A stretch of DNA of 34,435 bases from a virus (Duplodnaviria; Heunggongvirae; Uroviricota; Caudoviricetes), in IMG/VR virus record IMGVR_UViG_2529293069_000011, one strand, 5' to 3'. A program made the position numbers. Each line of letters opens with the position of its first letter. Within the stretch, counting starts at the first letter, position 1. Positions 15,001 to 18,000 of this stretch are shown in pieces.

Positions 15001-18000
15001 GCGCCGCGCGTTGTTTCCGGTATATCGACTTTGATGTACGGGTTAATTTGTCTGGCGACCGTGGCAAGGTCTTTATTCAGGAGGGCTTTGCATTCTGCTT
15101 CGGTATACGTTTTACCGGGAATGATGTCTTTTCCGGTGTGTCCGTGACATACAGTCCATACGCCAACGATATCTTCGTATGGTATGTAGCTGACACCTTC
15201 CAGGCCATCGTCACCACTCGGACCAGTGATGAGCACAGACGCTATGGCAACAGCCCCACCACCAATAGCAGCAGCAACAGCCTTGCGTAATGATGGCGAC
15301 ATTATTCACCTCTCGCAGCCTTACGCTTATCTTCTTTAATCTTGAAATAAAGGTTTGTCAGATACGTCAGCAAGCCAAACACCAAGCTACCCAATACGCC
15401 TATTGCCACCCACTGGGATGGGGAGACTTTGTCCAGCAACTGCAGTAGCCAGTATCCCGTCCCCACCGCTGACGTGGTGTATGACACACCTGTTGTTATT
15501 TTTTCCATCTGGTACATACCCCGTCTCCCGTTATCCGGAAGCTGACAACAATAAAAAGCCACCAGTTAATTCCTGATGGCCCTGATGCATAAACGTCATA
15601 ATACCTGACTGTTATGATTGACAATAATGATAATGTTTATATAGAAAGGTTCCCGATGTGTGTTACATATCATTTCTCCACGGGGAATATCCCCACGCCA
15701 GCGCAGACTCTTTTACCCGTTCTCTTCTGCGCTGGCTCTTTTTTATTATGCTGCTGCATTTACCTCTGGCACCATGCTTTCTATCTCAACACAATACGTG
15801 GTACTTCTTGTAACCAATATCATAACGATTAATCGACATAGAATTTCTCCCGTGTACAGGAACAGAGTTAAAAAGCCGGAACCGGAATCAAATCACAGGA
15901 TGACCATCTGCCAGTGGCAGGTCATAAAAAAAAGGCCGCGCCATGCGCAGCCAGAACTCACAAGGAAAATGATAGAAGGAAATAACATTAGTGATGTACG
16001 CATGGCGCCTCCCGCTAAGTTCTGCAATGATCAAACAGAACTCGCTACGTGCCCTTAAAACTCGATCATTTAGCCCCTCCAAGGAGGATTCACCATGCGG
16101 TTGATTTTTTAATAAACAGTAAACAAAAAAGTCAAGAATTATTCATTCTGTTCTTTCATCATCGGCCACAGCAATACCACAATGCCGCAGACCAGAGCGC
16201 CATCAGTCAGTACCAACATTATCCTGCTGGTGAAATCCATCATCACCATCACTAAAAGCAGGATCACAACAGCAAGCAGACACAGTTTATAAAACAATGT
16301 TCAGGAAACGCATTCAGCATGCCTAAGGTTCTATTCCTACGAATAGCCAACTTGCAACTTAAAATATTATTTATGCAGCCAATTAAATTCTGGTCCTTAC
16401 AATATCAACCTGAAGATTCTTATCTTGTGCTGATTGATAAATGACAAACCTTTTACTACCTGCATTGAAAGAAGTAGACAAAACCAGACAATTATCATAA
16501 CGAGCAAGAACATAATACCAACCATCATTATAATTAATCATTTCATATTCTTTCTTAAACTGTGGTTTGTAATATCCTGTCAGAAATGAAAAAAGCCAGA
16601 AATATGCCACAAAAGCAATCATCACAATCTCAAAAAAATGTTTTTTTATAAATGGCTTATCATAGAAGCATGATACCGATAAAAATCGCCCATAAGATCT
16701 TATCGAAATTGTAACCGCCAGCGCAATCGCTGCTGACAGTAGCAAAAGAGGTACCTGAATCTTCTGTCTCAATATAGAAAACTCAATAATTGCCGGCACA
16801 AACAATAATTCCACAGCAAAATAAAGGCGAAATACATTTAGCTCTTGCATAGAATGTTTTCTTTTCACTGCGAAAAAGAATACAACACCAATACCCCAAC
16901 CGATAAGAAATATAGCAATGACGATAACTGCAAAAAATAAACTTCTGGCAACATCATCAACACCTGCACCTACAATCCACCATGGGAAGCCGTAGTAAAA
17001 AGAAGTACCCCATCCATAGAAATAAGCACTCCCCCATCCAAGGCATCCCATGTAGGCAATAAAAAGTGAAGAACTCCTGAGCAGCGCACCATCCTTCATA
17101 ACCACCCCAATACAAGATGATAACATTGGCTTACAACTCATAACAAAAGCAATTCAATGCCGTCAAGAGGTTACAGGCTAAAAAAACTCTATTACATAGC
17201 AGCCAGCATGTTTACCGTACAAGTACAACTCAGGGCATAAAAAAAACCCACTCGGCAGCGGGTTTATACATTTTTTACAACATACCAAATTTGCATGAAG
17301 TATATGGCTTTTAATCCAGTTTTGCAATATTTTGCTGTAAAAATGCTGCCTTTTGTTTTGAACGTGTTCTCGTCACAAGCAATAAAGCATCACTATCAAG
17401 CTGTAGAAAAATGTGCTTCATTGCAACCCAGCGTTCAGTAAATGTCTCGGACCAGTTTTTTGTTGTCACTCCCACCAATGATGCCAGTGTCTGGTATTCA
17501 TAGGCCTCACGCCCTGCAAGTTCGCTCTTCACATCCTGTGCAGCCAGCCAGATTAACGTCTTCAGGCGATCCAGTGTCTTACCTGCAATTTTTCTGTTAC
17601 TTAACAAATCTTTAAACTCGCTCCATGCCCATTGCGTTATGGTGACCTGATGCCCCCATCGAACGCTTTCGCTGTAACACCAAAGCAACCATGCTTTCTG
17701 ATGTTCATCGAGAGACAAAACCGCGCGGCGCCATGAAGAGGTTGAGAATTCAACCGGGCTGACCAAAGCAATGGATGAACCTTTTGCGTACGACTGCTTA
17801 CCGGAAGTCGGCGTATTATCCAGCGTAATCATCTTGCCAGTTACCACATCCAGAATGCGCGGCTTCTTTCGTTTGTATGTACCAGTATCAAATTGTGCAT
17901 GCTCCTGCCAGGCTTCGAGCTGGCCTTTCGTTGCTCCGTTCAAGTCAGCAGTAGCTGCCATAAGTTGCTCACGAACATACTGTAAATATTGGGTATTCAT

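Follow-up and report, generated by a model that had tools for sequence, protein, structure and literature searches.

Introduction

Convergent pairs of small RNAs (sRNAs) at the moron site of prophage Sp3 of Escherichia coli O157:H7 Sakai were stated explicitly by Tree et al. 2014 (PMC4104026), who assigned both EcOnc13 and EcOnc32 to Sp3 and reported their sizes on Northern blots. PasD1 of the EPEC strain E2348/69 has a published context with Q and LpxR nearby and the holin gene adjacent (Pearl Mizrahi et al. 2021, PMC8550237). It reaches high RNA-seq counts and forms many RIL-seq chimeras, including those with aceE, uspA, yhdW, gltI, cesF and bfpB, and Northern blots in EPEC corroborated the size and the Hfq-dependent stability of PasD (PMC8550237). 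A common origin has been proposed for PasD and STnc100 (Zhu, Shabalina and Storz 2026). The sRNA Esr41 (EcOnc14) is encoded in the SpLE1/OI-43 island and has the iron-uptake mRNAs chuA, cirA and bfr as validated targets. In the published work that we consulted a regulatory outcome is given for neither PasD1 nor EcOnc32.

Results

The stretch of phage DNA analysed here, referred to as the window, comprises 34,435 nucleotides (IMGVR_UViG_2529293069_000011). It contains a gap of 820 bp (15563-16382) between the ORF of a 252-residue membrane protein, a moron on the minus strand (16383-17141), and the holin gene (longest ORF 15302-15562; RefSeq start 15517, i.e. 15302-15517), and both the ORF calls and the RefSeq annotation bear out these borders as given in a preliminary description of the sequence. 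The lysozyme gene is located at 14805-15302, the gene for the Q antiterminator at 17311-18084 and that for LpxR at 18475-19434. The gap had been described as AT-rich, and its GC content (0.421) is indeed below that of the window (0.477) and of the lysis genes (0.508), but the deviation is only mild, as the neighbouring membrane-protein moron has a GC content of 0.364.

Prophage Sp3 of E. coli O157:H7 Sakai is 99.95% identical to the window over 2201 nt and prophage PP4 of E2348/69 is 99.7% identical over 921 nt; a 1.2-kb query spanning this 921-bp block is largely found in 564 complete E. coli genomes. A tRNA scan of the whole window yielded no tRNA, indicating that the locus is not the tRNA cluster of Stx phages. 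With Rfam at gathering thresholds the sole match in the window was the lambda cIII thermoregulator, located outside the gap, and informative sRNA matches were only obtained in a separate scan with an E-value threshold. The gap, densely occupied by small genes, forms the distal end of the moron slot that follows Q/pR' in the lambdoid prophage Sp3; the locus had already been described by Tree et al. 2014 (PMC4104026), as a pair of convergent sRNAs located at the moron site. Very probably the gap is made up of two published Hfq-binding sRNAs that form a convergent pair, the gene for a 52-residue membrane protein, and the scar that the deletion of an esterase gene has left.

The first sRNA, PasD1 or EcOnc13, comprises 173 nt on the minus strand (15926-16098). 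In a BLAST comparison 173 of 173 nt are identical to PasD1 of EPEC E2348/69 (NC_011601 1060260-1060432), the PasD Northern probe matches exactly at 15942-15965, as does the published seed context, and the EcOnc13 Hfq (CRAC) peak of Sakai is placed at 15942-15992. The seed UGUGAG (15962-15957) precedes a Rho-independent terminator, for which the terminator scan gave a stem-loop at 15952-15934 followed by U8. In the centroid structure the seed is unpaired, whereas the minimum free energy (MFE) structure pairs its UGUG part in a weak 4-bp helix. The synteny corresponds to the published one, with Q and LpxR within 10 kb and holin and lysozyme directly adjacent, and PasD1 of E2348/69 has the same flanks (membrane protein, DUF3927, holin), seed and terminator, i.e. 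it is the same gene. PasD2 of E2348/69, in contrast, differs at 4 positions and by 1 indel, and the esterase gene downstream of it is intact. The EcOnc13 Northern probe as printed in the supplement of Tree et al. was absent from the window even when 3 mismatches were allowed, which may be due to a labelling or text-extraction error in the supplement.

Taking the 5' end from the published PasD1 coordinates (+1 G at 16098), we read a putative σ70 promoter from the sequence (16106-16135, minus strand), consisting of a -35 element TTGACT (16135-16130), an 18-nt spacer and a -10 element TAAAAA (16111-16106) and starting 3 nt past the stop codon of the DUF3927 gene. Across PasD and STnc100 loci, the block T-T-A-A-A-A-A that precedes GCATGG is conserved. 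PasD1 pairs with its target mRNAs via the single-stranded UGUGAG just upstream of the terminator, the corresponding target motif being CUCACA.

When compared with the Rfam model of STnc100 (RF02076), PasD1 scores 37.7 bits (E=4.5e-6) over the full length, which is below the gathering score of 47, whereas syntenic true STnc100 copies reach 120-149 bits. STnc100/EcOnc27, located downstream of stx2B, occupies the same slot in the same orientation in lambdoid prophages and has the -10 block, the 5' GCAUGGUGAAUCC, the first hairpin, the middle hairpin and the CGGGAGGC box in common with PasD1, with two pairs of the middle hairpin exhibiting compensatory changes. The 3' third, comprising seed region and terminator, is unrelated. 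Judged by sequence comparison, PasD1 is an STnc100 homologue over its 5' two thirds without being a member of the family by the Rfam criterion.

EcOnc32, the second sRNA, is encoded on the plus strand (~15652-15750; 5' end uncertain, 15641-15655), convergent with PasD1. The EcOnc32 Hfq peak of Sakai (901574-901662, minus strand; 89 nt) is found exactly at 15662-15750 (plus strand) and the EcOnc32 Northern probe exactly at 15656-15690. Among the rows listed from Table S2 of Tree et al. 2014 (PMC4104026) EcOnc32, given as ~112 nt, has the second largest AUC (6.5e7). The RNA is composed of a 5' hairpin (15655-15671), the single-stranded seed AUUUCUCCAC (15672-15681), a short GC hairpin (15682-15694), and a terminator with its stem at 15697-15707/15726-15736 and a U-run at 15739-15744, and the predicted fold of 15652-15750 has an MFE of -34.9 kcal/mol (z=-7.2). 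This architecture is retained in 5 other copies; in the resulting alignment of 6 copies, which includes Esr41, double changes occur in only 2 of 22 pairs, so that the support from covariation is weak.

EcOnc32 and Esr41 are built alike, a 5' hairpin being followed by a single-stranded CAUUU(U)CUCCA seed, a GGGG-loop-CCC hairpin and a Rho-independent terminator. They also share a nearly identical anti-SD seed (CAUUUCUCCA), the TTGACA context of the -35 element and Hfq binding. They differ in their location, the island mentioned above for Esr41 and a prophage late region for EcOnc32, and in the terminator loop, which comprises 18 nt in EcOnc32 and 7 nt in Esr41. The terminator module of EcOnc32, which abuts the 3' end of the esterase gene, is common to PasC and PasA-type sRNAs, but not to Esr41. 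The Rfam model of Esr41 (RF02676) is matched by EcOnc32 over model positions 1-74 of 74 with 32.3 bits (E=0.0012), below the gathering score of 102, as compared to 108.6 bits for the genuine Esr41 locus. The latter was located in the current Sakai record by BLAST with the Rfam consensus, the old EcOnc14 coordinates having given another sequence.

Alignment with Esr41 suggests a promoter of EcOnc32 at 15618-15645 (plus strand), with -35 TTGACA (15618-15623) and -10 TATAGA (15640-15645): ATTGACAA upstream of EcOnc32 aligns with the upstream motif of Esr41 and is followed 16-18 nt further on by TATAGA and TATATA, respectively. Of the two candidate pairs only the alternative, CTGACT (15605-15610) with GATAAT (15629-15634), is listed by the promoter scan.

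The corresponding slot of phage Evi and of a further three E. coli prophages, of which two carry stx2, holds a bona fide STnc100 facing an EcOnc32-like element in convergent orientation. The convergent anti-sRNA pairs at the pR' moron site (AsxR/EcOnc27, AgvB; Tree et al. 2014) have the same layout, with sRNAs on the late and the opposite strand between a moron CDS and the lysis genes. EcOnc32, however, is Esr41-like and ~95-112 nt long, as opposed to 51-60 nt in the AsxR/AgvB class, and the likeness is one of arrangement; no Rfam match to AgvB or AsxR was obtained even at E≤10.

Between the two sRNAs the minus strand carries the scar of an internally deleted gene for a sialate O-acetylesterase of the SASA family (NanS-type; 15743-15853), as recognised by BLAST and residue comparison. 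The ribosome-binding site (RBS) GGGAGA, the ATG (15839-15837), codons 1-8, the last ~24 codons and the stop codons TAA TAA (15748-15743) are kept, but beyond the junction between 15815 and 15814 the ~24 terminal codons are no longer in frame, and an intact ORF of ~616 aa is not present. Compared with prophage PP2 of E2348/69 and phage 434, homology is lost after the first 25 nt of the esterase CDS and regained 72 nt ahead of the stop codon, 1754 bp being missing. The N-terminus reads MSINRYDI here and MSIKHYDV there, the C-terminus VEIESMVPEVNAAA followed by two stop codons here and VEIESLMLEINAPAA followed by one there. The intact allele has GATGTT as microhomology at both sides of the deleted part. 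By its sequence we regard the esterase remnant as a pseudogene scar. A remnant of a larger moron, one of three options considered in the preliminary description, is thus indeed present in the form of an esterase gene that has lost ~1.75 kb internally.

The whole gap might likewise be a functionless, decaying remnant of a deleted larger moron in which ORFs, hairpins and motifs are incidental, and the frameshifted 17-codon stub left by the esterase deletion as well as the ~175 bp between the 3' ends of the sRNAs (15750-15925), which have no assigned function, would fit this reading. Against it stand the near-identity of the 921-bp block in O157 Sp3 and EPEC PP4 together with the wide occurrence of the 1.2-kb query, the binding of both sRNAs to Hfq, the exact matches of the EcOnc32 and EPEC PasD probes, and the sRNA architectures kept in diverged prophages. 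As the published transcripts refute it for the sRNA segments, we consider it highly improbable for the gap. Nor is the gap the degenerate stretch that the preliminary description had allowed for, devoid of conserved ORF, structure and discrete transcript, since it holds a conserved DUF3927 ORF, the sRNA architectures and published transcripts.

At ~40 nt upstream of the start of the holin gene, the terminator scan identified an intrinsic-terminator-like hairpin on the late strand, GCCATCAG-N7-CTGGTGGC followed by T5 (15555-15583, minus strand). PP2 and phage 434 have a hairpin with a T-run of other sequence in the same place, which is annotated as a terminator. In lysogens the hairpin may keep transcription of the morons from running into the lysis cassette. 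Read along the late strand, the DUF3927 gene would be followed by PasD1/EcOnc13 with its autonomous promoter, the esterase scar, the terminator-like hairpin and the holin gene, with EcOnc32 running towards PasD1 from the opposite strand.

Another explanation of the gap would be protein coding on the plus strand, either by ECs_0817 or by a mini-ORF with a strong Shine-Dalgarno (SD) sequence acting as a translated regulatory minigene. Translated regulatory minigenes are represented by the bar minigenes of lambda. The sequence noted in the preliminary description, AAGGAGG (16081-16087) followed by ATG CGG TTG ATT TTT TAA (16095-16112), is present on the plus strand (16081-16112), and with the ATG 7 nt behind the SD it forms an ideal initiation region; an SD-like run and ATG are also found antisense to STnc100 homologues. 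AAGGAGG is, however, not enriched in the window (5 observed, 3.4 expected) and constitutes one arm of the palindrome CCTCC-TT-GGAGG, whose opposite strand is the first hairpin of PasD (CCUCC-UU-GGAGG). The stretch also takes in the antisense of the PasD 5' end (GCAUGG). The conserved bases are exactly the 5' module of the sRNA, whereas the coding part coincides with the PasD -10 region and varies in length and frame, as read from the alignment of the STnc100-type homologues L009-L011. ATG and SD-like run are thus conserved only because the 5' module of PasD is. In addition, no plus-strand promoter is evident upstream, and EcOnc32 ends 330 nt before the mini-ORF. The SD and mini-ORF are not an independent feature; the regulatory RNA suspected here exists as two documented Hfq-bound sRNAs, PasD1/EcOnc13 and EcOnc32, and the element that had been pointed to is the antisense image of the 5' end, first hairpin and promoter of the former.

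ECs_0817 (WP_012578864.1, "hypothetical protein", 132 aa; 15660-16058, plus strand) is annotated by RefSeq in O157 and E2348/69, but its ORF crosses EcOnc32, the esterase scar and the PasD antisense, i.e. three unrelated modules. The Pfam search gave no credible match (Sid-5 with 18.9 bits at a cut-off of 27, E=0.0018, sub-threshold), no match was found in PHROG or PADLOC, and the search of transcriptome papers for ECs0817 or Z-numbers returned nothing usable. The DNA homologous to this ORF is, in all diverged loci, either broken up into 2-3 reading frames or recorded as a pseudogene with a frameshift. ECs_0817 is most likely a spurious call, and we give very little credence to protein coding on the plus strand as an explanation of the gap.

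On the minus strand, in contrast to the earlier statement that nothing in the gap translates into a convincing protein, a 52-codon gene with a TTG start (16139-16297; RefSeq WP_000499454.1) was identified by Pfam, PHROG and annotation. Its product matches Pfam DUF3927 (PF13064) with 53 bits (E=3.4e-14), well above the curated cut-off of 25, residues 7-50 aligning to profile positions 7-49 of 53, and PHROG 1470 with 63 bits (E=2.5e-17) over nearly the whole length. Existing annotations name the gene DUF3927 in O157 and E2348/69, but TciB in phage 434. The ATG-started 36-codon hydrophobic ORF reported before (16139-16249, minus strand) exists, but represents only the C-terminal two thirds of this gene: in the homologues of phage Evi and strain OkiPb01715 residues are conserved throughout, including the N-terminal segment. 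A small membrane peptide is thus real, although it is a strongly hydrophobic 52-aa member of the DUF3927 family with two hydrophobic segments and not a 36-aa orphan. Each of the three options raised in the preliminary description, moron remnant, membrane peptide and regulatory RNA, is therefore represented in the gap, their location or nature having been misjudged.

The gene has the full-length match, the size of 52-55 aa and the slot among morons downstream of Q in common with the other members of DUF3927/PHROG 1470 ("TciB-like"). It differs in following the 252-aa membrane protein, whereas in other phages it follows a TerB-family gene, and in its start, which is a TTG preceded by no recognisable SD, while the homologues in Evi and OkiPb01715 begin with GTG preceded by a GGAGA SD. 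Our literature search on TciB and DUF3927 found nothing relevant, and PADLOC gave no defence-system match for the 252-aa membrane protein, the DUF3927 protein or the 132-aa ORF. The least probable of the alternatives, a type I toxin-antitoxin pair (hok/sok- or zor/orz-like) of the DUF3927 peptide and an adjacent sRNA, draws on the proximity of a strongly hydrophobic 52-aa peptide to abundant Hfq-bound sRNAs and is rejected for lack of complementarity, neither sRNA being antisense to the DUF3927 mRNA and the longest Watson-Crick complementarity to intergenic region and ORF (9 nt for PasD1, P=0.09; 7 nt for EcOnc32, P=0.61) lying in the range of shuffled sequences. Moreover, the 3' end of an upstream TerB-family gene extends into DUF3927 in other phages, which suggests translational coupling rather than a stand-alone cassette, and the RIL-seq partners of PasD are chromosomal and virulence mRNAs.

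Discussion

What looked like a gap in the late operon is a densely packed regulatory locus rather than an element of a new kind. Its annotation is problematic in several respects: RefSeq puts the 132-aa ECs_0817, in all likelihood spurious, over two real sRNAs, the Rfam gathering thresholds miss both of them, and the esterase pseudogene is unannotated. Most of the 1.2-kb block affected by these problems occurs in the 564 complete genomes.

The sole forward-looking point is a possible control of EcOnc32 by Fur together with a link to entC; this one point, a match to the Fur box in the EcOnc32 promoter alongside a published chimera joining EcOnc32 to entC, may be new. A Fur-box-like site, AATAATGATAATGTTTATA (15623-15641), is located between the putative -35 and -10 elements of EcOnc32 and matches the consensus (GATAATGATAATCATTATC) at 15 of 19 positions on the plus strand and at 14 of 19 on the minus strand. 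When the 820-bp region was randomised with a Markov-1 model, 1.3% of the randomised sequences reached at least 15/19 (P ~0.013). In the two diverged copies L009 and L010 a hand count in the alignment gave 11/19, and the Esr41 promoter, in contrast to that of EcOnc32, has no such box. EcOnc32 may be under Fur control.

As to targets, the rows listed from the published CLASH data include a chimera of EcOnc32 with the 5'UTR/start of entC, for which the table gives 4.4, a value that we take as the interaction score; the validated Esr41 pairs among these rows have 3.1-4.2. The entC link corresponds to a few chimeric reads, whereas chuA, cirA and bfr are validated for Esr41. RNAduplex gave -30.4 kcal/mol for EcOnc32 and entC, but 35% of shuffled sRNAs paired at least as well, and we do not count this value as evidence. 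Most likely EcOnc32 occludes the ribosome-binding sites of mRNAs for iron acquisition, e.g. that of entC, and thereby represses their translation.

Combining these points, we tentatively propose that EcOnc32, as a prophage paralogue of Esr41, responds to iron through repression by Fur and damps enterobactin synthesis by pairing with the RBS of entC, and that convergent sRNAs swap 5' seed modules onto a shared terminator, a proposal that we ourselves regard as rather doubtful in its entirety. EcOnc32 may be an example of such a swap, with an Esr41-type seed placed on a PasC/PasA-type terminator that abuts the 3' end of the esterase gene. If the proposal is true, a lambdoid prophage would re-tune the siderophore economy of its host from the moron slot, and the role of Esr41 in iron homeostasis would extend to a second, prophage-borne copy in O157, O55:H7 and EPEC strains.

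Position of the gap in the late region

The late genes on the minus strand run in the order Q (17311-18084; Pfam Phage_antiter_Q, E = 2e-91), a terminator-like hairpin detected by the terminator scan (17265-17244), a 252-aa membrane-protein ORF (16383-17141), the 820-bp gap (15563-16382), a class II holin (Pfam P21 holin S), lysozyme and Rz, with a GC content of 42.1% in the gap, 50.8% in the lysis genes and 47.7% in the window. Many E. coli O157:H7 chromosomes are 100% identical to a 1.2-kb query spanning the gap, and 564 complete genomes out of 5426 carry most of it. Sakai prophage Sp3 is 99.95% identical to the window across a 2.2-kb stretch, and prophage PP4 of EPEC E2348/69 is 99.7% identical over 921 bp (15480-16400). 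On the minus strand a hairpin with a T-run (15583-15555) precedes the holin by about 40 nt; at this site E2348/69 prophage PP2 and phage 434 carry a hairpin and T-run of another sequence, annotated as a terminator in phage 434. The hairpin in the window would keep constitutive transcription of the morons out of the lysis genes and would be overridden by Q.

The multi-pass membrane protein (36% GC; PHROG 1521, unknown function), encoded upstream of a DUF3927 gene, is identical in O157, EPEC PP2 and EPEC PP4 and also present in phage 434; Pfam and PADLOC gave no match. The Q stop codon is followed directly by a promoter-like TTGCAA-17-TATACT (17327-17299) and the strong hairpin at 17265-17244, which together resemble the pR' and tR' of a Q82-type phage (17235-17327); a weak Rfam STnc240 match (28.2 bits, E = 0.18) overlaps them. 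Upstream of Q, on the opposite strand, lies the gene for the lipid A deacylase LpxR (18475-19434, plus strand), a component of the published PasD synteny signature, in very AT-rich surroundings (GC 0.28-0.33; flanks 18150-18450) and flanked in related records by a truncated second antiterminator fragment. The sole Rfam match in the window at the gathering threshold is the lambda cIII thermoregulator (RF01804, 88.5 bits; 32369-32427, plus strand).

The late strand encodes the sRNA PasD1/EcOnc13

Using an E-value threshold rather than the gathering threshold, we found a full-length Rfam STnc100 match at 15923-16128 (minus strand; 37.7 bits, E = 4.5e-6). PasD1 is a 173-nt sRNA of prophage PP4 (NC_011601, 1060260-1060432) whose EHEC homologue is named EcOnc13 (Pearl Mizrahi et al. 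2021, PMC8550237). Positions 16098-15926 (minus strand) are 100% identical to the extracted PasD1, and PasD2 is 97% identical to the window. The EPEC PasD Northern probe given in that paper matches exactly at 15942-15965, and the Hfq CRAC peak of EcOnc13 (Sakai 901332-901382, Sp3; Tree et al. 2014, PMC4104026) maps to 15942-15992 (minus strand). The window also matches the published synteny, with Q and LpxR nearby and the holin adjacent. The EcOnc13 Northern probe printed in the supplement of Tree et al. 2014 (TTTTCTAACACATCTATTATCAGACCGGCAACAAC) was absent from the window with up to three mismatches allowed, which may reflect mislabelling or a text-extraction error in the supplement.

The PasD1 seed UGUGAG (15962-15957) lies immediately 5' of a strong terminator (15952-15934, followed by U8); the centroid fold leaves it unpaired, and in the MFE structure a weak 4-bp helix takes up part of it. 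A plausible promoter (TTGACT, 18 nt, TAAAAA, +1 at 16098) begins 3 nt past the DUF3927 stop codon and has a -10 block conserved in homologues, consistent with the expression of PasD1 reported in uninduced EPEC (Pearl Mizrahi et al. 2021).

A bona fide STnc100 (120-149 bits) occupies the syntenic late-strand position in phage Evi and in three further E. coli prophages, of which two carry stx2. Alignment with PasD revealed a common -10 block, 5' GCAUGGUGAAUCC, first hairpin, CGGGAGGC box and middle hairpin, the last with two compensatory pairs. The 3' parts, with the seed and the terminator, are unrelated. Zhu, Shabalina and Storz (2026) derived PasD and STnc100 from one ancestor, a claim that our sequence alignment reproduces. 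Membership of PasD in STnc100 itself was rejected, as its score is below Rfam's own gathering score of 47. Transcripts of both types start with G-C-AUG and a short ORF (16096-16070, minus strand; also in locus L003 and the STnc100-type loci L009-L011), which reads MVNPPWRG-stop in the window and MVNPPVRRG..., with differing lengths, in STnc100. Conservation extends over the leaderless-like AUG and the first five codons, but these bases are also those of the conserved hairpin.

The plus-strand mini-ORF mirrors PasD

The preliminary description had pointed to a Shine-Dalgarno sequence with a 5-codon ORF on the plus strand, and AAGGAGG-N7-ATG with such an ORF is indeed present at ~16095. AAGGAGG is not enriched in the window (5 observed, 3.4 expected); here it is one arm of the palindrome CCTCC-TT-GGAGG, which on the minus strand forms the first hairpin of PasD. 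The ATG lies opposite PasD nucleotides 2-4 as their complement, and the other four codons correspond to the PasD -10 region. In the aligned STnc100-type loci the Shine-Dalgarno-like run and the ATG persist because the 5' module of the sRNA is conserved, but the ORF behind them varies in length and frame. We therefore take the mini-ORF to be the mirror image of PasD and reject it as a gene.

EcOnc32 is encoded on the opposite strand

A full-length Rfam Esr41 match lies at 15657-15746 (plus strand; 32.3 bits, E = 0.0012; gathering score 102); the genuine Esr41 locus (SpLE1/OI-43) scores 108.6 bits on the same model. Tree et al. 2014 reported a second Sp3 sRNA, EcOnc32 (Sakai 901574-901662, minus strand), with a predicted terminator, a Northern size of ~112 nt and the second largest Hfq signal among the examined rows of their Table S2. 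Its 89-nt Hfq peak matches exactly at 15662-15750 (plus strand) and its Northern probe at 15656-15690. The predicted fold (MFE -34.9 kcal/mol, z = -7.2) comprises a 5' hairpin, single-stranded AUUUCUCCAC, a second hairpin (GGGGA-AUA-UCCCC) and a terminator of 11 bp whose loop measures 18 nt. In Esr41 the elements follow the same order, the seed is almost identical and the -35 context ATTGACAA is the same; covariation support is thin, with double changes in 2 of the 22 pairs. The pyrimidine-rich terminator loop (CUCUUUUACCCGUUCUCU, 15708-15725, plus strand), nearly invariant in all prophage copies and lacking in Esr41, could be a second interaction site.

The EcOnc32 element occurs in 603 of the 5426 genomes, with 28 copies being 80-90% and 10 copies 60-80% identical. 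Three diverged copies were fetched; all occupy the same slot in other prophages, and two are convergent with STnc100 just downstream of stx2B. In these two stx2 prophages (L010, 1501-1990; L011, 1420-1912) the STnc100 is full length and the EcOnc32-like sRNA takes the position of AsxR in the Stx2a phage Sp5, about 100 nt past stx2B; L011 is annotated with a Stx2i B subunit and an e/i/l/k-subtype A subunit, L010 only with Stx2 subunit B. Convergent sRNA pairs at the moron site, explicitly including Sp3, were described by Tree et al. 2014, and Esr41 matches are common near PasD (Zhu et al. 2026).

An esterase remnant at the EcOnc32 terminator

Homology to the SASA-family esterase CDS of phage 434 and E2348/69 PP2 ends 25 nt into the gene and resumes 72 nt before its stop, so that the window lacks 1754 bp. 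The RBS, the ATG (15839) and codons 1-8 (MSINRYDI) are kept and are joined out of frame at 15815/15814 to the last ~24 codons (ending in VEIESMVPEVNAAA and two stop codons). As GATGTT flanks both sides of the junction in the intact allele, the sequence suggests a microhomology-mediated deletion.

The 3' end of EcOnc32 overlaps the stop codons of the esterase remnant (15748-15743). PasC and a second unit inside the long PasA carry the same module of terminator and esterase tail, which suggests that the opposite-strand sRNAs evolve in a modular way. The 236-nt 'minor' PasA form (E2348/69 PP2 locus L005, about 3765-3915, reverse strand) contains another promoter-like site with TTGACA; its 3' end is the terminator GCCAGCG...CGCTGGC-U7-AUUAUGCUGC, which abuts the esterase stop codon. 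This GCCAGCG...CGCTGGC-U7 terminator is common to PasC and EcOnc32, and the region may be a separate short sRNA unit in PP2.

Protein-coding capacity of the gap

A 36-codon hydrophobic ORF noted earlier (16139-16249, minus strand) does exist; it makes up the C-terminal portion of a 52-codon ORF with a TTG start (16139-16297, minus strand) and not a standalone gene. The longer ORF matches Pfam DUF3927 (53 bits, cut-off 25) and PHROG 1470 "TciB-like", both essentially over its full length; RefSeq labels it DUF3927 family protein, the curated phage 434 record TciB. In phage Evi and strain OkiPb01715, diverged homologues show conserved residues throughout, the first hydrophobic segment included. 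Their genes overlap the 3' end of the preceding TerB-family gene and have a GTG start behind a GGAGA Shine-Dalgarno sequence, whereas the window allele has a non-ATG start and no evident Shine-Dalgarno sequence (candidate starts 16297 or, with ATG, 16249). A literature search for DUF3927/TciB gave no functional description, and PADLOC gave no match. A type I toxin-antitoxin reading of the locus fails, as complementarity is no greater than in shuffles.

RefSeq annotates a 132-aa ORF, ECs_0817, on the plus strand (15660-16058). We found no credible family for it (one sub-threshold Pfam match, none in PHROGs or PADLOC), and in every diverged locus its DNA is split across frames or marked as a pseudogene; on sequence grounds we consider this ORF spurious.

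Possible regulation and targets of EcOnc32

Esr41 represses chuA, cirA and bfr via its seed, as validated with compensatory mutations (Waters 2017). Table EV7 of the same study holds a CLASH chimera of EcOnc32 with ECs0632 that covers the 5'UTR and start codon; its row carries a value of 4.4, probably the interaction score, and validated Esr41 pairs scored 3.1-4.2. ECs_0632 is entC, and by eye the EcOnc32 seed can pair with its Shine-Dalgarno sequence (GUGGAGGAUGAU). RNAduplex did not discriminate the EcOnc32-entC pair from shuffles and hence is given no evidential weight.

The EcOnc32 promoter contains AATAATGATAATGTTTATA (15623-15641), which agrees with the Fur consensus at 15 of 19 positions; an equally good match arose in 1.3% of randomised regions. 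In diverged copies the match drops to 11 of 19 (hand count in their alignment), and a Fur-like box is absent from the Esr41 promoter, so we put forward Fur control of EcOnc32 as a hypothesis. A second 15/19 match, GATAATTTTACTCATCATC (14318-14336, minus strand), lies about 5 bp past the end of the Rz/lysis-protein ORF (14341); the window has two such matches, against an expectation of 0.1 in a randomised window.

The preliminary description had suggested, with hedging, a remnant of a larger moron, a small membrane peptide or a regulatory RNA; all three occur in the gap, but the specific features offered were misread. The locus itself is already described (Tree 2014; Pearl Mizrahi 2021; Waters 2017, supplement; Zhu 2026), and one modest lead stands out, the possible control of EcOnc32 by Fur together with its link to entC.
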